DNA from: Terriglobia bacterium | GTDB taxonomy: Bacteria > Acidobacteriota > Terriglobia > UBA7540 | Length of the DNA: 64,000 nucleotides | Assembly (NCBI GenBank): GCA_050013575.1 | Contig: JBEKEZ010000002.1 | Coordinates: forward strand, 192,736-256,735 | Direction of reading: 5' to 3' | Shown here: positions 54,731 through 63,873 of the stretch, piece by piece | How the letters are laid out: every line of letters begins with the position of its first letter | Numbering within the stretch: position 1 is the first letter of the stretch | Made by a program: the position numbers and the translations under genes | The notes under the pieces: model-generated | What the model was told of the DNA's origin: nothing | Databases searched by the model: none | Seen by the model: the letters and a program-made list of their open reading frames with translations, nothing else

Positions 54731-55024
54731 TCACATGTTAGTGACGCCTGGAGAGGTTGCTTCCGCGTTGCTGCCGTCGAACACAAAGCTCTGCGCGCTG
54801 CATTTCGAGGCGGTCGAGCCAATCGTCATTGCGCCCTTCACGTTTGAGGGCCAGACGAAGGTCCTGCTGCCGGTCGAGTCCTGGCAGATGATGAAGTTCA
54901 ATTGCTCGCCCGCAGAAGCGTTGGCGAGCGTCGAACTGGTGACGTTGCCGGTGAGCGTAATCTTTTGGGTGTTGCCGAGGGACGCGTCGAAGGTAGGCGT
55001 CCCTGAGAACGTCACGACGTTCAG
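54731..55024. repeat. dispersed repeat copy 2 (encodes the shared C-terminal module)
   Basis: See 5442-5735. My hand count is 75 of 97 identical residues, with no gaps. Confidence 0.8.
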
Positions 55025-57916
55025 TGATGTGGCAAAGTTTCGCGCCGTAACCGCGCCCGTGCCGCTAGGCGTGAGTGTGACGTTCTGGTTCGTTCCGCCC
55101 GCGGTGAGCGAGATGGCGCCGGTCGACGTCACGCCCCCATTGATCACGGGCGAGGTCAGCGTCTTGTTAGTCAACGTGTCGACAGAAGCCCTGTAGACGA
55201 AGGTGTCGGTCACGTCTTGCAGGGTCTGGGTGCGCGCGCCTGTTGCCGTGCCGGTGACTTTGATGTTGTTGGTAGCCGCACTGCCCAGCCACAGGTTGCC
55301 GAACGGGAGCGAGGCCGACCCAAGGTCCCCGACGCCGGCGGAGGAGGGTGTGATCGTCTGCGGTACGCTGAGCGCGCTCGCTCCGAAGATATAAGATTTG
55401 GTGCCGTTCGAGGCTGTCAAGACAAACTGTGAAGACGAAGGATTGAGGTAGAGAGAGTCCGACCCCGCAGCGTCAGAGTTTATCATGTCGTAGACGGGCT
55501 GATTGGCGGAACAGTTCGTGCCCGTGTTGACGGGGGTCCCGTTATTCACTTGCGCAGCCGGGCAGCCAATCCGGATGGCTGCGCCACCGTAAACGCTGGG
55601 GGCAGTCGGGAGCCACATTCCGTAGAAGAATAGCCCTTGAGCAGTGATCACGGCAGGCGGCGAGAAGGGAGCCCCATTGACATAGTCCGCATACTCTGAC
55701 GGGTCGTTCAAATTTTGGACGCCAATCGCATTTTCGCTCCTCTGCCATCCGTGCCCGGACAGTTGAATCAGCATCGTGCTGCTCGGCGCGTTCCCCACGT
55801 AGGGCAATAATTTGTGCACGCCGGAGAACACGTTCGCGCTGGAATCGAATTGCCAGTAGTGTTGATTTTCGACCATCTCGCCGCTTGCCCAGTTGACGTT
55901 GTTCGGGGCCAGCGTTGCCGTGTCCGAAAGCTTCCCGTTTTGCTGCCACGAAAGAACCTCGGCCCCCGGAAAAACGTAGTACTGGTTGGACTGCTGCCAG
56001 CCCGTGCAGGTGGGTGGCGAGCAGCTTCCGCTGATCCCATGGCCGGAGTAACCGATTCCGTTGTTGCCAACCGCCCATGGAATCAGGTGGGAGCTGTCAG
56101 TGACGGCAAGTATCGGGAACGCCTGACGAACACAGTTCACCGCGGGCGAGACTCCGCACGTCGAACTATATCCAGCCTCGCCGTAACGGTCCGAGACCAA
56201 CTCGACATAGTAACCCGCGCAGGCTCCAGCGTTGCCCGATGCGCACGCGCCACCGTTGGCAATGCTCACTACCGCTCCCGGAGGGTGCGGCTTATTGAAA
56301 GTCGCAGTGAAGGCGGTTTGAGGGTTTCCGGAGAAGGCAGTGGCTTTCACAATTTCGTAACTTCCGTCATCGCCGATGACGATGGGCGTGTTAGTGGTGA
56401 CACCGCTCAAGTTCGTCCCCATGGTGTAACTGGCCGGCGTCACTGTGCAGGTGGCAGGCAGGGTGGTAGTAGGGTTGCAGTTCGGACCCGGGATCGCAGC
56501 GTCGGTCAGGGCCAGCACGGTGTTCGCAGTCCACGACGTGCCGTTGCCAACATACTGCGGCCAGGTCCATGCGCCGAGGTTATACGTCCCAAGGGAAGAG
56601 AGCGTGCCATTGCTGCCTTTGGAAATATCGAGCAACGGGCGCCCGGCGCCCTGCTCGGTCTCGGACTGGAGATTGCTCACGGTGATCTGCGTGGCCCCTT
56701 GAGATAATGCAGGGCAGGAGGGCGGACCACAGATCGTGCCGGAGTATACGTCACTCACCTGATAAGCGGTGAAGCCGGCCGACTCCAACCCCTCGTCACC
56801 CATCGTGCTCGCGCCTCCGTAGTTCATGCTCAACACTTCGAGGCCGATGGTGTCGCCCGTCGCCCCGCTGAGCGTCTGGATGCTCAGAGGAATGTGTTCA
56901 GCAGGCGTGTAGTACTGTCCGGCGATGTTAACGGCCTTGAAGACGCTTTTGTCGGCGTAATAGGGCCAGTTGTAGAGATTCCTTCCGCCATCAAAGACCT
57001 TCTGGGAAAACTCGTTTTCCACTACATTCATGAACTGAGTATAGCCGCTGCTTCGGTAGCGATTCCCCACCCACTGATTGCCGACGATGAGATTCGGAAG
57101 GCCGCCGCTGTCAGTCGCGTTGCCCGGCGAATCGTAGTTGGTGACGTGAAGCCCGTCGCGGAAGTCCCAAACCTGGAGATTGGGACTATTCGAGCACCCA
57201 TTGGAGTTACCTGTCATCGAGGTGATGCCGCTGTAGATACTGCCCGCGCCGCAGATTGCCTCCGTGGAGCTGGACTTGCTCGCGGGATTCACGATGAGCG
57301 CGCCGTTCGTTCCGGCATTTGAGATGGCGCTGGCACAAGGCGTGGAACCGGAAAATTGGTCGCAGAATCGCGTGGCCTCGACGTGACCCGTGGAGTCGGT
57401 GCCCAGCGGCTGCGGCACAGACCAAGTTCGCACGTCGGTGATCGAGTTGATGGACGAGCTCCCCGTGCTGACTTCCGCCAGAGGGACTTGACCGGCGACG
57501 AAGCCGCTGGTGTTAGAGGCCGGCACACAGTTATTGGCTGGGTCCAGATACACGTAATTCGTCGCGCTCGCGGTCATGGGCAGGGTGCCGCCGGGATAGC
57601 TGACTGGGGCCTGCGGATTGCCGCAAAAAGCCGTTCCCGCGGCAATGTTCACGTTGGGCCAAGTCCCCGCCGTCACCCAATAGCCAGGACCCACGCCCTG
57701 GACGTACTTCGCATTGACGGCGTAAACGGGCTGGCCGCCTTCCGCCTGCGGCTGCTGCCCCAAAACTAGTGACGAGTGACGAGTGAAGAGTGACGAGCAA
57801 GTTAGAACGACCACGATCAGAGCAACTCGCAGCGCATCGTGCCCGTTCCGACCCCTGACTCCTGACTCCTGACTCCTAACTTCTAGCTTTTGACTTTTAG
57901 ATGCTGCTTTCAACAT
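54731..57916 (-). CDS. large tail-fibre-like secreted protein (1061 aa) with conserved leader and C-terminal module
   Basis: GAGGTG SD 5 nt before the ATG. Leader: MLKAASKSQKLEVRSQESGVRGRNGHDALRVALIVVVLTCSSLFTRHSSLVLGQQPQ. Fibre-type motifs: DLGSASLPFGNLWLG and DTLTNKTLTSPVING. The Gly/Thr/Ser/Asn/Cys-rich body and the C-terminal 97 aa are shared with the 5442-7085 protein. Confidence 0.75.
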   Translation of the reverse strand: MLKAASKSQKLEVRSQESGVRGRNGHDALRVALIVVVLTCSSLFTRHSSLVLGQQPQAEGGQPVYAVNAKYVQGVGPGYWVTAGTWPNVNIAAGTAFCGNPQAPVSYPGGTLPMTASATNYVYLDPANNCVPASNTSGFVAGQVPLAEVSTGSSSINSITDVRTWSVPQPLGTDSTGHVEATRFCDQFSGSTPCASAISNAGTNGALIVNPASKSSSTEAICGAGSIYSGITSMTGNSNGCSNSPNLQVWDFRDGLHVTNYDSPGNATDSGGLPNLIVGNQWVGNRYRSSGYTQFMNVVENEFSQKVFDGGRNLYNWPYYADKSVFKAVNIAGQYYTPAEHIPLSIQTLSGATGDTIGLEVLSMNYGGASTMGDEGLESAGFTAYQVSDVYSGTICGPPSCPALSQGATQITVSNLQSETEQGAGRPLLDISKGSNGTLSSLGTYNLGAWTWPQYVGNGTSWTANTVLALTDAAIPGPNCNPTTTLPATCTVTPASYTMGTNLSGVTTNTPIVIGDDGSYEIVKATAFSGNPQTAFTATFNKPHPPGAVVSIANGGACASGNAGACAGYYVELVSDRYGEAGYSSTCGVSPAVNCVRQAFPILAVTDSSHLIPWAVGNNGIGYSGHGISGSCSPPTCTGWQQSNQYYVFPGAEVLSWQQNGKLSDTATLAPNNVNWASGEMVENQHYWQFDSSANVFSGVHKLLPYVGNAPSSTMLIQLSGHGWQRSENAIGVQNLNDPSEYADYVNGAPFSPPAVITAQGLFFYGMWLPTAPSVYGGAAIRIGCPAAQVNNGTPVNTGTNCSANQPVYDMINSDAAGSDSLYLNPSSSQFVLTASNGTKSYIFGASALSVPQTITPSSAGVGDLGSASLPFGNLWLGSAATNNIKVTGTATGARTQTLQDVTDTFVYRASVDTLTNKTLTSPVINGGVTSTGAISLTAGGTNQNVTLTPSGTGAVTARNFATSLNVVTFSGTPTFDASLGNTQKITLTGNVTSSTLANASAGEQLNFIICQDSTGSRTFVWPSNVKGAMTIGSTASKCSAQSFVFDGSNAEATSPGVTNM
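57778..57902. repeat. two heptad-phased arrays inside the leader coding region (H8)
   Basis: agtgacg agtgacg agtgaag agtgacg agcaagt (57778-57812) and cctgact cctgact cctgact cctaact tctagct tttgact tttagat (57854-57902). About 5 of 7 positions per unit are complementary between the arrays. Confidence 0.6.
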
Positions 57917-57999: not shown

Positions 58000-58662
58000 T
58001 TACCAAATCTGAATGCTCGCCGTGACCCCCGCATCCGAGGCGGTGAGATACAGGTTGGTAGCGTCGAACAGAGTTGTTGGTTGAAACCACAGCGCTCCGC
58101 CGGAGGTCATGTAAATGATTGCGCCCAGCGGTGCCCGCCCAAGATTGTGGTTAGTTGAAAAATTGCCCGCTGCCGCGGCACTCACGGCCAGCCGACCGTA
58201 AACCTTGGTGGCGTTTGTCACCGCGAGGACGTGGGTCGCGTCGGTGGTCACGCTGCCGAGATATGCGTCGCCCGGCGTTGCCGGCGACCCCGTCAGATTG
58301 AAATAGAACCCGGTGATCGAACTCCACCACAGGAAACTCGTGGAGCTGGCCGGCGCCGCTGAGGGGGTCGGGGACGAAGGAGCCCAGCGCATTCCTTGCG
58401 CGTAGAGCACTCCCGGTGAAAGACCCGGCGTCAAATTCGCCGAAGTTGCAAGCGTGAAGCCGGCGATCACACCAGATAGGCCAATGTCGCCAAGCCACGC
58501 GGCGACAGTCCCAGCGGCCAGGACCGCATTCCGGACGTCGTTGGCGTCCTGCAAAAGCGAGTCAATGGTCTGCCAGTTGGTGTCCAGGTCAGTTTCGTAG
58601 TTGTTTCCGTGCTGCGGCTCGATAATTCCTTTTCGCGGCAAAACTGTTCTTACGATCGCCAT
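58000..58662 (-). CDS. short tail-fibre-like protein (220 aa)
   Basis: Start set at MAIVRTVLPRKGIIEPQHGNNYETDLDTNWQTIDSLL. This has the LP-x-P...W...N...ID pattern common at the N-termini of phage fibre and minor tail proteins. The C-half is Ala/Gly/Thr/Ser-rich and beta-like. The ORF track extends to 58815. Confidence 0.6.
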   Translation of the reverse strand: MAIVRTVLPRKGIIEPQHGNNYETDLDTNWQTIDSLLQDANDVRNAVLAAGTVAAWLGDIGLSGVIAGFTLATSANLTPGLSPGVLYAQGMRWAPSSPTPSAAPASSTSFLWWSSITGFYFNLTGSPATPGDAYLGSVTTDATHVLAVTNATKVYGRLAVSAAAAGNFSTNHNLGRAPLGAIIYMTSGGALWFQPTTLFDATNLYLTASDAGVTASIQIW

Positions 58663-58672
58663 GTTCGAAATC

Positions 58673-58707
58673 CAGGAATCGGGGATAGGGGATTCGAGAT
58701 TAGCCAA
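58673..58707. repeat. heptad-phased array (H9)
   Basis: caggaat cggggat aggggat tcgagat tagccaa, immediately upstream of the 220-aa gene start. Confidence 0.5.
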
Positions 58708-58760
58708 AGCAAAAGGCGCTTCGGCAAACCCCGTTCCCCAGCTCCTAAGCCCTGACCTCC

Positions 58761-59264
58761 TTAATCTGATGAGACTCCGAGCGGCAGATTCACGCTCGAT
58801 CTTGTGGCCAAGCAATACACTTTCACCGTGCCGTCATTAGTCGGGGTTTCTGCGCCGCCCCCCACGTAGTAACTGACCACCGTGGTCACTATGCCGTTGG
58901 CGTCGTTGATGTCCACGATCCATCTGTAAATTTGTCCCGCGCCGCCGTTTGAATTCGAGAGCGACGGGAAAGCAGTTTGTCCCGGCGTGAATCCCGGCCC
59001 CGGCGGGCGGCTCGCTGCAAAAATAGGGATGAACAGGCACTCAGGATAAGAATACTGGTAACCATCGACCGGGCTGGCCGGCACGGGCACGGTGTTCCCA
59101 TTTGCGTAGAAGCCCATATAAATCAACTCGGGGCGCACCGCGGCAAACTTGGCGTTCTGCGAGATCTTGATCATGGAATAGTCGGTGAGCGGCTGGTTTG
59201 CCGAAATCGAGGCGTCGGGCAAATCGATGAAACCGGGTATGGCGCTGAGCAATAGCTGGGACAT
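58761..59264 (-). CDS. hypothetical protein (167 aa)
   Basis: ATG preceded by a GAGGAG SD. No signal peptide and no family recognised. It is co-oriented between the giant protein gene and the fibre-like genes. Confidence 0.6.
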   Translation of the reverse strand: MSQLLLSAIPGFIDLPDASISANQPLTDYSMIKISQNAKFAAVRPELIYMGFYANGNTVPVPASPVDGYQYSYPECLFIPIFAASRPPGPGFTPGQTAFPSLSNSNGGAGQIYRWIVDINDANGIVTTVVSYYVGGGAETPTNDGTVKVYCLATRSSVNLPLGVSSD

Positions 59265-59345: not shown

Positions 59346-62300
59346 CTAAAAAATGGTGTTTCCCGGCGTGCCATCGCTATACGTCCCGCCCGTCGCGCTT
59401 GCCGAGATCACCATGTACTCCGCCTTCTGCGCTGGCGTCAGGTCGGCCCAAACCGGCAAACCAAGCGACGCCGGCGCGATCTGATAGGGCGTCGAAAGAC
59501 CCATAAACCGGGCATCGAGCAGCTCAAACTGCATTTGGCCTTTGGCGTAGCTGGGTTGACGGCTCATCACCTTGCAAAGAACGTTGGAAATCCCCACTCC
59601 GCCATTGCCCTGGGGATTCAGGTCCGTCACTTTGCGATGTGAAAGAGTAACGTAATCCCCCACTTCCACCCCGACCGCGCTCAAGAAGGAAGTCACCTTA
59701 TACCGTGGCGTATCAAAGGCGTAACTGCGGAACAGCCAGTCCGCCAGCAGATACGACCACAAATAGCCGCCGTAATTCACTCGCAACCCGGTGGACTCCA
59801 CCTGTTGGTTGTAAACGTACTTGTGCAGATTGATGGAATCGTTTTCCTGAAAAAACCACTGGTTCTGGAACCCGCGGGCCGCCGACATGGGCCCGCCATC
59901 GTCGGGTTCAAGGCGCGTAGTCAGCATGTTGACCACCGGGTCGCGGGTGACCTCGGGAATGCCGATCACGTTGGAGTCCGTAAAGGAATAGACTGGCGTC
60001 AGGCCGGCGGGATTCTTGACGGGCACCAGTGAAATTGCGCCGGACGCGCGGATGACCACGACCAGTCCGAGCGGCTTGAGGATGTAATCCTCGATCCAGC
60101 TTTTTGCCTGCATGCCTGTCGTGATGGTGAACTCGAAGTGCGCGCCGCCGTATATGCCATCGCGTAGCGCCAGAATGCCTGGGATATCGATAAATGGGTT
60201 GGGATTTATCAGTGTTTCCGGGTGGCCGGGAACGTACTTCACCCAGTAAGGATTGGCCATCACTTGGCTGGTCGTACCGACGCCAGTCAGGATCGGGGTC
60301 AAGGCGGGGTCCTGGCCCACGCCGAGCTCATTCTGAAGCGCGGCCAGTAACAAGTCGAGTGGATGGCCGGAAAGTTGGCGCGGGTTCTTGTCAGAAGTGG
60401 GAAAGGCGTTCGCGAGCCACGAATCGCCAATGGGAAACGGCGGAGCGGGCTGGCCGGGCAGCCACTCGCTCGGGCCGCCATTGGGCCAAATCATCGCACC
60501 CGCGATATACCGCTGCAAATCCGAGCACGTAATTTGCACTTTGCCGTCGGATGAAAATCCCACACCCTTGATGGTGACGGTGTGCAGCGGCATGAAGTCA
60601 TTGAGCGCCAGGCCGGAGAAGCCCATCGAAAACACCGCGATCTGGCCAATCAGCGCTTGCTGCGCCGCCAGCGAGCGCAGCGAGCCGCCCGGGTCGTTGC
60701 ACTCGATCGTAAACTCGCCCACGTCGCTCGATCCTTCCGAGTCTCGAATCGCCTGGCTCGGCCCGTCCGGCAAGACCATATTGGGCAGCAACTGTGATTG
60801 CGTCGAACTCGAGAGTACGAGCGTGGGGTTAGTGGCCGTAATCCACATCCAGGCGGTCGGCGCGAGCATCGGCCAGACCTCGAACTCCCACGGCAGCCCG
60901 CGCGCCGCGAGCGAATAACCCACCAGCGACCCGTTCCCCGTGGCTTGCAGGATGTTGCATTGGCCAGTGACGAGGGCGGAGAGCACGGCGTCCGTCGTCG
61001 TGCCGAGGCCGGCGAAATAATCGGCTAGGCCAGGCGTCGAATAGAGCCGGAGAAGCGCCGCGATCATCCCCCAGGTTCCTTCTTGCCAGACGGACGCCGG
61101 AGATCCCGAATAGCCGCCGGAAGAATCGTTGTAAGGCTTCATCCCGCTGAAAGGGGTGGCGAGAGCATAGGCTTCGTTCCAGGTGCTGGCGCCGTTCGAC
61201 TTGACGATGGTTTCGTTGTTGAGCAGGAAATTCGCGTAGGCGAACTCGAGGCACTGGAGCGCAATGTCGTCGCGGGCGTTGGCGTCGGCGAGCATCGCGG
61301 TCCATGCTCCACTGGCATCGAGCGCCTGGCTCGTGTCGAGCCCGCTGGCGCTCGCTCCCTGCGCGAAATGGCCGGGCACGTTGCCGGCTGGCGCGATATA
61401 GAGACCGGCGAGAAGGTTCGTCCATATCGTCGCAGCGGCGGTGCTCAGCATCGTAGCCAGTGCTGTCAATGAAGAGGCTTGCGCAGAAGTAAGTTGACCC
61501 GTTTTAATGAGATTCAAGGAGGCCGTGGGCAGCAGCGCCGCGGCGCGCGTAAAGGCAAACCACAAGTCCACCTGATGCTCGGTTGAAACGGCCAACTGTT
61601 CGCCCGGAACGAATTGGTAGCCTGGGTCCTGATATTGCCCGTAGCCCATGTAGAACAGTCCGTTGGTCAGGTCACTCGCGCTGCTTTGCAAAGTCAGCAG
61701 GAAATTCAGCATCCGTTGCAGATAGAGGACATGGGAAAAGTCCGTTGACATCTGCATGTAAAGCGCGTAGGCGTAACACACCCAGGCCATCGCTCCGGTG
61801 CGGATGTAGGCTTGGTCGATCTGGCCATTGTAAACGTCATAAGAAAAGCTCAGCGAGTCCGCCGGCTGGATGTTGCCGATGCTTAGGTTGTCAAATTTAA
61901 GATCTCCCGCCGCGTCCAGCGTGATCCTGAACCCGGTAATGGAGCTGAGGGTGTCCGAAGCGAGCGAAGAAATCAGAGAGGCCAGGTTGACAAGTTGGGT
62001 GCGGTACGTGCCTGCGCCCGGACCGATCGCCAGGGTGATGGTTTTGGTTCCGGCGTTGAATAAGGCCGGGGCCTCCGCGCCGGAAGTCACCAGCACATCC
62101 GTCACCGCGCCGTTCGCCGTTGTCACCGAAATGTCAAAACTGAAACCGACGCCGGCAGCCTCGCTGTGTTGCCACTCGATTTGACTCTCCGTCGATGCGG
62201 GAAGGCCGCTGCCCGTATAAGTGAAATAGTCCCCCGCGTTCGCGGCGTGGAAATCGACCACCAGGCCGGCGCCGTAGGGCGGCTCAGTCGGATCGTTCAC

Positions 62301-63803
62301 GTCAGTGATCGAGTCTGAGGCGTTTGATTTGTTCCAGCGCGAGGCCGAATTGCCATCTTCCCCGTTTTCCAGGACGGCATTCGCGAGGTAGCCGGGATGA
62401 TCGAGCAGGTCATTCAACTGCTGGATGACCTTTTGTGCCGAGGCAAAATTTCCCGAAGCGCTGTAGGCAATAATGGCTAGGGCGTCGTCGTAGATGAAAC
62501 TGCGATTCTGCAGCGCGGCGGCGTTTGACAGTGTGGGGTTGGGATCGTAAAGCGGATCGGAAGTGGGAACATCGAACGAGCGCGCCAAGCCCTGGTAGGC
62601 GGCCAGGCTCTGCATGGATGAATAGACCGTAATCCAGCCGGCCACGGGGTCGTTATAGAGCACGTGGACCGTGGGCGCGCCCTCGCCGGGCCAGACGCTC
62701 GAGCCGCAGCGCGCGTGGAAATCGTCAGCCTGCATGAGGATGGGGATATTGTCTTCCTGCAGGTATTCAATGTCGGTCTTCACAAAAACCTGCGCTTTGT
62801 AGTTCGAAAGCTGGCTGCCGATCCCCATGTTCGAGTGGGCCACCCACCCGGCCGGCACTTGCGCGCCGCTCCAGCCGCTGGCGGGCTGGGCAACGCTGGC
62901 GGGATAGAGCACAGCCAATAGCAGGCCCGGCGCCACGCTGGCCACGCTGAACGTTCCGGCGCTCTCGAACGCATCGCCACCGAGCGCGGTTGTATAGAGA
63001 GACGAGCTGCCTTGGTAGTAGAAGACGTCAGTGTGGACGAAGAGGTCGACGCGATAATACGAGAGAGGCCGAAGCAAATTGAAAACGTAACCCAGGGCCA
63101 GCCAGCCGACGTTTTGGTAGCCCAGCGCCACCAGCTTCCACACCTGCGCGTCGTCGCCCGTCAGGGCGCCCAGCGTCGCCGGCCAGTTGGGAGGGTTGCC
63201 GCCGCCGCAACCGGCAATCCCGCTGGCGCACGTCTGGCCGGTCACCAGCGCCATTTGCGTGTTGTTGTTTGAGTCCACGATCATCTGCCCGAAACTGTAA
63301 ACGGCGCCCGCCACCCACTTCGCGTAGACGCCGGGCGTTTGCGGCGGGCCGGGCGTCAAGTTGGCGCTGCCGTCGGAAAGCAGGTAATTGGTGGCGGCGA
63401 TCATGGCCGGGGTAATCTGGTAAGAGTTCACCAGAAGCGAGCCCCAGCCGAGCGGCTGCGGCGACTCGTTAATGGGGTAGCCGTCCGGGCCAAGCTGTGT
63501 GTCCGGATAGAGGCCGGCGGGAAGCTGAAGCACAATGTTTTCAATTTGGTTATAAAGGAAGGGCGTGCCCTGCGCTTCACTGACCATCTGCCCGGTAATG
63601 AAGTTGGTTTCAGACGAGAGCCCGCACTCGATGAATCCGCTGGATTGGCCCGGCGTCTGCGGAGAAGGCGTCGCGCCAGCCGTCAGGAGTGCGTTCGCCT
63701 GCCAGTTGCCGACCGGCCCCGTCTGCCGGGCCAGTAGCCACGCCACCGCCTTGTTCAAATCCGCGTAATATGAGCCAGGATAATAGCCTTTAACCGCGGC
63801 CAT
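59346..63803 (-). CDS. giant (about 1485 aa) multidomain protein: six-hairpin (alpha/alpha)6 glycosidase-like region plus phage tail-hub/host-specificity-like C-terminal region
   Basis: Start set at ATG 63803, with a GGAGG SD 5 nt upstream. Toroid-type helix pairs: YDDALAIIAYSASGNFASAQKVIQQL, LQRMLNFLLTLQ, AVSTEHQVDLWFAFTRAA, VWQEGTWGMIAALLRL, LAPTAWMWI. A beta-sandwich insert is present. The last ~500 aa are beta-rich (FTIECNDPGGSLRSLAAQQALIGQIAVFSMGFSG...). No signal peptide. Confidence 0.65.
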   Translation of the reverse strand: MAAVKGYYPGSYYADLNKAVAWLLARQTGPVGNWQANALLTAGATPSPQTPGQSSGFIECGLSSETNFITGQMVSEAQGTPFLYNQIENIVLQLPAGLYPDTQLGPDGYPINESPQPLGWGSLLVNSYQITPAMIAATNYLLSDGSANLTPGPPQTPGVYAKWVAGAVYSFGQMIVDSNNNTQMALVTGQTCASGIAGCGGGNPPNWPATLGALTGDDAQVWKLVALGYQNVGWLALGYVFNLLRPLSYYRVDLFVHTDVFYYQGSSSLYTTALGGDAFESAGTFSVASVAPGLLLAVLYPASVAQPASGWSGAQVPAGWVAHSNMGIGSQLSNYKAQVFVKTDIEYLQEDNIPILMQADDFHARCGSSVWPGEGAPTVHVLYNDPVAGWITVYSSMQSLAAYQGLARSFDVPTSDPLYDPNPTLSNAAALQNRSFIYDDALAIIAYSASGNFASAQKVIQQLNDLLDHPGYLANAVLENGEDGNSASRWNKSNASDSITDVNDPTEPPYGAGLVVDFHAANAGDYFTYTGSGLPASTESQIEWQHSEAAGVGFSFDISVTTANGAVTDVLVTSGAEAPALFNAGTKTITLAIGPGAGTYRTQLVNLASLISSLASDTLSSITGFRITLDAAGDLKFDNLSIGNIQPADSLSFSYDVYNGQIDQAYIRTGAMAWVCYAYALYMQMSTDFSHVLYLQRMLNFLLTLQSSASDLTNGLFYMGYGQYQDPGYQFVPGEQLAVSTEHQVDLWFAFTRAAALLPTASLNLIKTGQLTSAQASSLTALATMLSTAAATIWTNLLAGLYIAPAGNVPGHFAQGASASGLDTSQALDASGAWTAMLADANARDDIALQCLEFAYANFLLNNETIVKSNGASTWNEAYALATPFSGMKPYNDSSGGYSGSPASVWQEGTWGMIAALLRLYSTPGLADYFAGLGTTTDAVLSALVTGQCNILQATGNGSLVGYSLAARGLPWEFEVWPMLAPTAWMWITATNPTLVLSSSTQSQLLPNMVLPDGPSQAIRDSEGSSDVGEFTIECNDPGGSLRSLAAQQALIGQIAVFSMGFSGLALNDFMPLHTVTIKGVGFSSDGKVQITCSDLQRYIAGAMIWPNGGPSEWLPGQPAPPFPIGDSWLANAFPTSDKNPRQLSGHPLDLLLAALQNELGVGQDPALTPILTGVGTTSQVMANPYWVKYVPGHPETLINPNPFIDIPGILALRDGIYGGAHFEFTITTGMQAKSWIEDYILKPLGLVVVIRASGAISLVPVKNPAGLTPVYSFTDSNVIGIPEVTRDPVVNMLTTRLEPDDGGPMSAARGFQNQWFFQENDSINLHKYVYNQQVESTGLRVNYGGYLWSYLLADWLFRSYAFDTPRYKVTSFLSAVGVEVGDYVTLSHRKVTDLNPQGNGGVGISNVLCKVMSRQPSYAKGQMQFELLDARFMGLSTPYQIAPASLGLPVWADLTPAQKAEYMVISASATGGTYSDGTPGNTIF

Positions 63804-63873
63804 CGTGCCTCCGCCACCCCTGTCGCCGATGAACGACCGTGGAACTTTTTCCACCCATCAGCAAGCGTCCGGA

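Follow-up and report, generated by a model that had tools for sequence, protein, structure and literature searches.

The question raised by this locus is what function belongs to a protein of 1485 residues whose many relatives are all unnamed. Its coding sequence lies at positions 59346..63803 (-), stop codon included, of a 64,000-nucleotide stretch from a Terriglobia bacterium, an acidobacterium of soil (G000:C2:192736-256735); the whole stretch is called the window here. A first, sequence-only reading had proposed that the protein joins an (alpha/alpha)6 glycosidase-like toroid to a C-terminus resembling a phage tail tip. Our answer, based on the list of open reading frames (ORFs), the translation, the homologues and predicted structures, is that it is a tail-tip hub (Tal / baseplate-hub) with an N-terminal enzyme-like module, belonging to a siphovirus-type, short-tailed prophage of about 40 kb and bearing enzyme lobes for surface polysaccharide; we give this reading as a whole a probability of about 0.6. 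The structural role as tail-tip hub is highly probable, and the toroid lobe is predicted, at odds somewhat better than even, to be a surface-glycan enzyme.

The longest ORF at the locus (59346..63854 (-)) opens at a GTG, and an ATG at 63803 gives the 1485-residue product. We place the start at this ATG because of an identical 1485-residue database protein and the aligned N-termini of homologues. At E<=1e-3 the database matches number more than 220 proteins, all unnamed and all from Terriglobia genomes and metagenomes, so that the gene is real and a chance ORF is excluded; the 120 matches listed are 46-63% identical, about one third of them over the full length. Scans of the protein against Pfam and NCBIfam gave no family match, and 26 members of the family, compared with Pfam at E<=10, likewise gave only noise. 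Since there is no Pfam match of any kind, there is also none to the domains of gene transfer agents (GTAs), which we take to be the GTA TIM-barrel-like and Phage-tail_3 domains. Sequence and profile searches of the PDB, family profiles included, found no real match, and a PHROG scan gave only weak tail-fibre matches at residues 635-753.

The C-terminal part, residues 1000-1485 (486 aa), was modelled by AlphaFold2 (AF2) with 103 homologues, giving a mean predicted local distance difference test score (pLDDT) of 81.5 and a predicted TM-score (pTM) of 0.80; this model and that of the N-terminal part are both monomers. Foldseek found 54 PDB matches at E<1e-3. With few exceptions the listed ones are hubs of tail tips, baseplates or injection systems, among them (at probability 1.0) HFTV1, AlgoCIS, phage Mu gp44, T5 pb3, T4 gp27, lambda gpJ, VgrG and the RcGTA virion (chain 6tba_8A, E 1e-6), as well as the contractile injection system (CIS) of Anabaena and R-pyocin. 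Target TM-scores reach 0.5-0.67 for chains that consist of the hub only (9g8s_q, 9rku_Af, 3d37_A). As modelled, the C-terminal ~480 residues fold as a complete four-domain gp27-like tail/baseplate hub (residues 1010-1485; 59349..60776 (-)). The tail-tip-like C-terminus proposed earlier is thereby borne out; the last ~500 residues, described there as beta-rich, have a fold that is mixed alpha/beta and not purely beta.

Gene order tells the same story. The hallmark genes of a phage sit just past the end of the window, not inside it. Upstream of the giant gene and on the same strand come, in order, a T4-type TerL, a Mu-type portal, a Mu-I-like protease, a scaffold-like protein and an E-type major capsid protein (phrog_1005, E 8e-82), then a 206-aa protein, a 199-aa tube-like protein, a 177-aa chaperone-like protein, a 297-aa tape-measure-like protein, a 127-aa protein, a 58-aa ORF and the giant gene itself. 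Genes for proteins of 167 and 271 residues and a 1061-aa fibre follow. From the tube-like gene to the giant gene the order is kept in related loci. Because of these surrounding head and tail genes we place the giant gene in the tail-tip (Tal) position of a siphovirus-type prophage. The 297-aa protein is helical and rich in Ala, Gln and Gly, and its position and composition point to a short tape measure; Pfam, NCBIfam and PHROG scans of nine tail neighbours gave no family match. A secreted multidomain glycosidase that has no place in the virion and merely lies beside a prophage would fit the lack of any Pfam or PHROG tail family over the whole protein. Against it stand the complete gp27-like hub fold, an N-terminus without a signal peptide, the shared orientation with the head and tail genes, and a position that never changes among the related loci, where the 127-aa / 58-aa genes flank the giant gene on one side and the 167-aa gene on the other. 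We regard such an enzyme as extremely improbable.

The part of the protein ahead of the hub was modelled as residues 1-1010 (pLDDT 85.4, pTM 0.76). It opens with a domain of 135 residues (N1, residues 1-135; 63399..63803 (-)), made of a helix (12-25) and a small beta domain at pLDDT of about 70-93, which is kept in all full-length homologues and may be an anchor or plug. A variable insert follows (residues 136-233; 63105..63398 (-)), modelled at low confidence (pLDDT 34-61 at residues 140-225) and missing from about half of the homologues (coverage 0.54). Residues 150-231 of this insert match part of proteins of 266-271 aa, whose genes lie 3-6 kb upstream of the giant gene in the prophages of three other genomes (G013, G010 and G024), and the insert may be a small W/Y/G-rich carbohydrate-binding-like module that moves among tail proteins. 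The next domain is a beta-sandwich (residues 234-400; 62604..63104 (-)) at pLDDT >90, with a highly conserved acidic motif of invariant columns (D344, E346, Y347, E350, D351, D360, H363 and R365). The sequence-only reading had called the first ~450 residues beta-rich.

Behind the sandwich lies the toroid. Its helices 1-2 occupy residues 434-471 (62391..62504 (-)), with conserved R434, Y438 and D439; a jelly-roll or carbohydrate-binding-module (CBM)-like beta-sandwich (residues 472-656; 61836..62390 (-)) is set between helices 2 and 3; and helices 3-11 fill residues 657-1000 (60804..61835 (-)), mostly at pLDDT >90. The first two segments rest on AF2 and Foldseek, and the third on hhalign as well. 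The AF2 model has 11-12 long helices, at 437-468 and at 669-991 (nine in the latter). The best Foldseek match of the helical part is to D-glucuronyl C5-epimerase (E 1e-9; 6i01, 4pw2), and GH116, GH94 cellobiose phosphorylase, GH125, GH76 and cellobiose 2-epimerase / AGE follow at 1e-5 to 1e-4; TM-scores are low for residues 1-1010, the model being multi-domain. Short Foldseek matches of 172-189 aligned columns, to FAP20-type jelly rolls (176-189) and CBM11 (187), most likely fall on the 472-656 insert, which is missing from some toroid-bearing homologues. The model thus shows an (alpha/alpha)6 toroid at residues 434-1000, with a jelly-roll of 185 residues dividing it.

The sequence-only reading had recognised the toroid from motifs spaced as in six-hairpin glycoside hydrolases, and all four are present: DDALAIIAY (residues 439-447), STEHQVDLWFAF (740-751), WQEGTWGMIAALL (906-918) and APTAWMWI (981-988). 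The helices and the glycosidase and epimerase matches agree with it on the fold; structure prediction returned the (alpha/alpha)6 barrel on which the proposal depended, and no homology of the whole protein to a known non-tail family was found. It was also right that an all-beta insert interrupts the toroid, the insert being 185 residues long (472-656) and not about 170.

Several lines point to the toroid being an enzyme, among them the survival of its motifs in the distant relatives described below and the degree to which the sandwich-toroid part is conserved within the family, at 60-64% identity against 50% for the hub. It shares its barrel fold with the (alpha/alpha)6 carbohydrate-active enzymes (GLCE, 6i01/4pw2; GH116, GH94, GH125, GH76 and AGE / cellobiose 2-epimerase), and with GH116 and GH94 also a beta-sandwich N-terminal to the barrel. 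Conserved motifs are FSYD (653-656), STEHQ (740-744), LDxxxALD (822-829), VWQEGTWG (905-912) and LPWEFEVW (970-977). As in those enzymes, conserved acidic and aromatic residues gather on one funnel face: D439, D656, D663, E742, D746, D823, D829, D893, E908 and E973 lie on one face of the barrel, and the conserved polar (acidic) and aromatic residues number 25 at the starts of odd-numbered toroid helices against 6 at even ones. The face formed by the odd helix starts is the usual active-site side of (alpha/alpha)6 barrels. Unlike the known enzymes, the present toroid has no detectable sequence relationship to any of them, carries the 185-aa jelly-roll between helices 2 and 3, and is fused to a virion hub. 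The alpha/alpha toroid is a known, rare fold among phage depolymerases, found in 11 of 984 candidates (PMC11326577).

The toroid might instead not cleave at all, and either only bind a glycan receptor or modify it, for instance by C5-epimerisation of uronate. Its top solved neighbours are D-glucuronyl C5-epimerases, with AGE-type and cellobiose 2-epimerases also among the matches, and many of the modules on phage tails resemble lectins. Although D-glucuronyl C5-epimerase is the best fold match, Pfam and PDB sequence searches found no match to it. At least ten invariant acidic, His and Arg residues share one barrel face and are conserved across phyla, a pattern suggestive of catalysis. It is not obvious how epimerisation would help a phage to pass a layer of polysaccharide, and sister proteins have a GH18 module at the equivalent position. 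We therefore consider a non-cleaving toroid quite unlikely.

Relatives of the toroid occur outside this family. Among phages, true homologues of the toroid, which keep its catalytic-looking motifs, are found in PHROGs 37493, 7032 and 13714 and in the BFVD entry F9VHN7; they come from tail regions or bear a tail-fibre annotation. A protein of 668 residues from Coprococcus phage NatCom_10489, encoded two genes after the tape measure, is a toroid homologue (hhalign 99.8%, about 32% identity) that retains FSYD, S-x-E-H-Q, ALD..W, VW-x-EGT and LPWEF; it differs in that its toroid is C-terminal, with no hub after it and no jelly-roll insert. A tblastn search against 50,697 phage records gave one match only, and a word-based search that used just the toroid recovered nothing beyond fragments belonging to this family. 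A similar relative is found in a cellular setting, where another acidobacterial genome (G028) encodes a 451-aa protein with a signal peptide that is a toroid homologue (hhalign 98.7%) with the motifs retained. Its gene overlaps by 4 nt that of a secreted CE4 polysaccharide deacetylase (L026:5704-8822 (-), on G028:C2), a pairing reminiscent of the PgaB- and PelA-type enzymes that process extracellular polysaccharide (EPS). Of the 40 relatives searched, only G028 and G014 yielded a full-length copy of this toroid standing by itself. The pairing in G028, together with the GH18 and TIM-barrel modules that take the place of the toroid in other members of the hub family, lends indirect support to the putative depolymerase function suggested by the sequence-only reading.

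These relatives also bear on the possibility that the toroid is a tail-associated lysin, acting not on EPS but on peptidoglycan or another wall glycan that contains N-acetylglucosamine (GlcNAc). The module is well conserved across many genera; it is ~32% identical to a protein from the phage of a Gram-positive host, and peptidoglycan is the obvious glycan common to both hosts; GH18 occurs in sister hub proteins, and the cellular homologue lies beside a CE4 deacetylase. Both the GH18 and the CE4 families include enzymes that act on GlcNAc polymers, and the Tal position classically houses a wall hydrolase. On the other side, an (alpha/alpha)6 fold is not known to us from any peptidoglycan hydrolase, although no search for one was made, and in a diderm acidobacterium the outer membrane would be impassable for a trimer of ~110-kDa lobes attached outside the hub. 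Wall enzymes of T5 are small and pass through the tube. Those of RcGTA do the same (PMC7296036). A lysin seems to us unlikely, and an enzyme acting on surface polysaccharide is preferred.

We sought relatives of the hub in a full phmmer scan, which found 320. Of these, 150 were listed, and nearly every full-length protein in that set ends with the hub (P0143 is one of the few exceptions); lengths range from about 440-450 aa for hub-only proteins to 1600 aa. GH18 precedes the hub in P0171 and P0163, and in P0156 the place is taken by the TIM barrel of 'non-contractile tail sheath' proteins; the recognisable N-terminal extensions are of glycan-active type. With varied modules ahead of a constant C-terminal hub, this is therefore a hub family with exchangeable N-terminal enzyme-type modules, and the domain order is as read here.

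The protein thus belongs to a known kind and departs from its usual layout. Like the Tal and hub proteins T5 pb3, SPP1 gp21, lambda gpJ, T4 gp27 and Mu gp44, it has the four-domain hub fold and a position after the tape-measure and distal-tail genes, and many of those proteins also bear an added enzymatic or receptor-binding extension. A classical Tal has its hub at the N-terminus and the extension at the C-terminus. Here, as in nearly all full-length relatives listed, the hub is C-terminal and the addition N-terminal.

A closer parallel is found in the RcGTA megatron g15 (Rcc01698) and RcGTA-like phages, where a giant tip protein likewise places a large peripheral enzyme-like domain before a gp27-like hub. 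In the megatron the peripheral domain (residues 230-744) is N-terminal to a hub-like central domain (745-984; PMC7296036), a domain map that confirms the GTA gp15-type precedent cited in the sequence-only reading. RcGTA also has a short tape-measure protein and a threefold tip (PMC7296036), the threefold tip being predicted for the present protein. The two differ in that the peripheral fold here is an (alpha/alpha)6 toroid; in that the RcGTA hub is split over g13 and g15 and followed by a fibre-binding domain, whereas the present hub is complete in one chain and terminal; and in that no g13- or g14-like genes lie here between the tape-measure-like gene and the giant gene. The fibres of HFTV1 join its hub at the N-terminus and extend outwards from there (PMC12494034). 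From this attachment and the megatron layout, the N-terminal lobe of the present protein should be peripheral.

Whether the cluster is a phage or a domesticated particle was judged from its distribution. Within the family of the host, 21 of 24 other genomes, covering 20 of 21 genera, have a homologue of the giant gene. The sister family gave one weak, partial match among four genomes, and 12 genomes taken from further families of the class gave none. Such prevalence, together with the short tape-measure-like protein and the megatron-like tip protein, both as in RcGTA, and the lack of an integrase among the element proteins scanned, would suit a domesticated, vertically inherited GTA-like particle with the protein as its baseplate. 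The pdhC and dnaJ flanks of the present element, however, lie on different contigs from the homologue in four genomes (G001, G003, G004 and G008), so the location is not conserved, and identity does not track taxonomy: copies from the same genus are 43-44% identical and those from other genera 57-59%. The element measures about 40 kb and, besides many orphan genes, encodes a DnaC-like loader; the fibre and moron genes that flank the giant gene are not the same from one genome to the next, and eleven IMG/VR viral contigs carry the giant gene. A GTA-like particle is thus highly improbable, and the GTA or tailocin reading was rejected on the patterns of synteny and identity. The non-conserved location, the identity that departs from taxonomy and the viral contigs lead us to a widespread, mobile lineage of temperate phages; the element behaves as a mobile prophage, unlike RcGTA, which is a fixed GTA.

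Several points weigh against a hub with surface-polysaccharide enzyme lobes. Within the family the sandwich-toroid part is 60-64% identical and the hub 50%, so that the enzyme part is the best-conserved region, where strain-specific capsule depolymerases are usually most variable. No sequence link from the toroid to a CAZy-type Pfam family, an NCBIfam model or a solved structure was found, and the catalytic residues are for that reason not mappable. The best Foldseek match is an epimerase and not a hydrolase, N1 is without an assigned role, and the 297-aa tape-measure and 127-aa distal-tail assignments come from position and composition only.

Taken together, the models and the solved tails suggest how the protein might work. 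By analogy with the latter, the hub would trimerise below the distal tail ring, close the tube and take the end of the tape-measure protein. Outside the tip, each subunit would display its N-terminal ~1000 residues as an enzyme lobe of ~110 kDa, composed of the beta-sandwich and the (alpha/alpha)6 toroid with its carbohydrate-binding-like jelly-roll insert. On contact with the host the three lobes may bind surface polysaccharide through the jelly-roll, be it EPS, capsule or lipopolysaccharide, and cleave or otherwise modify it; along the cleared path the tip would arrive at the outer membrane together with the 1061-aa fibres, after which the hub would open for DNA ejection. We infer the trimer geometry, the catalytic activity and its substrate, and likewise the choice between hydrolase and lyase chemistry.

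The genes around the hub complete the tail module. Directly downstream lies the conserved 167-aa gene (58761..59264 (-)), probably for a tail-tip accessory protein, which adjoins the giant gene in every related locus that reaches past the latter (44-59% identity) and is tandemly duplicated in two IMG/VR contigs (L016:10038-11942 and L024:9869-11398). A conserved gene for ~271 residues, of uncertain start (58000..58815 (-)), is syntenic by tblastx with the G008 prophage at 50% identity and probably encodes a tail accessory protein or fibre adaptor. The module is closed by the 1061-aa fibre-like gene (54731..57916 (-)), the N-terminal part of which is 60-70% identical in the G008 prophage; host genes come next, and a Pfam scan of the fibre at E<=0.1 gave no family.

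On the other side, between the 127-aa gene and the giant gene, lies the 58-aa ORF (L004:609-785 = G000:C2:256609-256785 (-)), which reads MIIGNQSWQTALGQNVKQPLYVLQIP... and has a Gly/hydrophobic tail. It differs in frame from the giant gene, from which it is separated by a gap that varies between about 70 and 140 nt, and is 48-55% identical in most related loci; tblastn found no match in the four loci with the most divergent copies (L020-L022 and L025). Its product is probably a small component of the tail tip.

Past the window end, two genes for secreted proteins stand at the head/tail junction of this genome. The first (L004:5640-8702 (-)) encodes a 1020-aa Gly/Ser/Thr-rich fibre-like protein whose ORF opens with a leader built of repeats (SEIRNQKSEIR..., FCFLISAFCLLLSAFCFL), and the second (L004:3919-5805 (-)) a Cys-rich protein of ~570 aa with a signal peptide. 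Neither is found at that place in the G008 prophage, and we therefore take both to be moron-like insertions. The 1020-aa ORF was also considered as the tape measure and rejected, being a fibre-like secreted protein that is not there in G008. In the G008 prophage an insertion of about 7 kb separates the portal and protease genes (L011-L012; G008:C7, about 663500-670600), which are adjacent here. Four Arg-rich ORFs, of 203, 118, 128 and 431 aa, appear to be artefacts of reading in the wrong frame; it is the minus strand that carries the real genes for the tube-like and chaperone-like proteins. The element is flanked by pdhC and a 184-aa gene on one side and by dnaJ/dnaK on the other, with no tRNA at either end. 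Transposable (Mu-like) replication was considered and is not established, the candidates being a 662-aa ORF without a match and a DnaC/IstB-like ATPase, the only such protein found.

A tail-tip hub is a known kind of protein, and this one is set apart by its inverted domain order, by its uncharacterised toroid family, and by having no relatives in Pfam, NCBIfam and PDB sequence searches, the weak PHROG tail-fibre matches excepted. We advance two broader proposals jointly and tentatively, at clearly less than even odds. The toroid may found a new family of carbohydrate-active enzymes, present on phage tips in at least two phyla and in secreted enzymes paired with CE4; and the hubs may form an 'inverted Tal' class with interchangeable N-terminal glycan-active modules (toroid, GH18, TIM barrel), carried by a lineage whose hosts span most genera within a single family of acidobacteria.

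Few groups of bacteria are as abundant in soil as the Acidobacteria, and to our knowledge few of their phages have been characterised. The protein described here marks a prophage lineage in 21 of the 24 sampled genomes of one family, and because its enzyme module is unusually conserved it offers a good handle on the envelope or EPS polymer that these phages must breach. The toroid is a candidate for a new family of glycan-active enzymes. Tail hubs, moreover, can accept large N-terminal modules of enzyme type, putatively catalytic, which widens the rules by which tail-tip and depolymerase genes are annotated.

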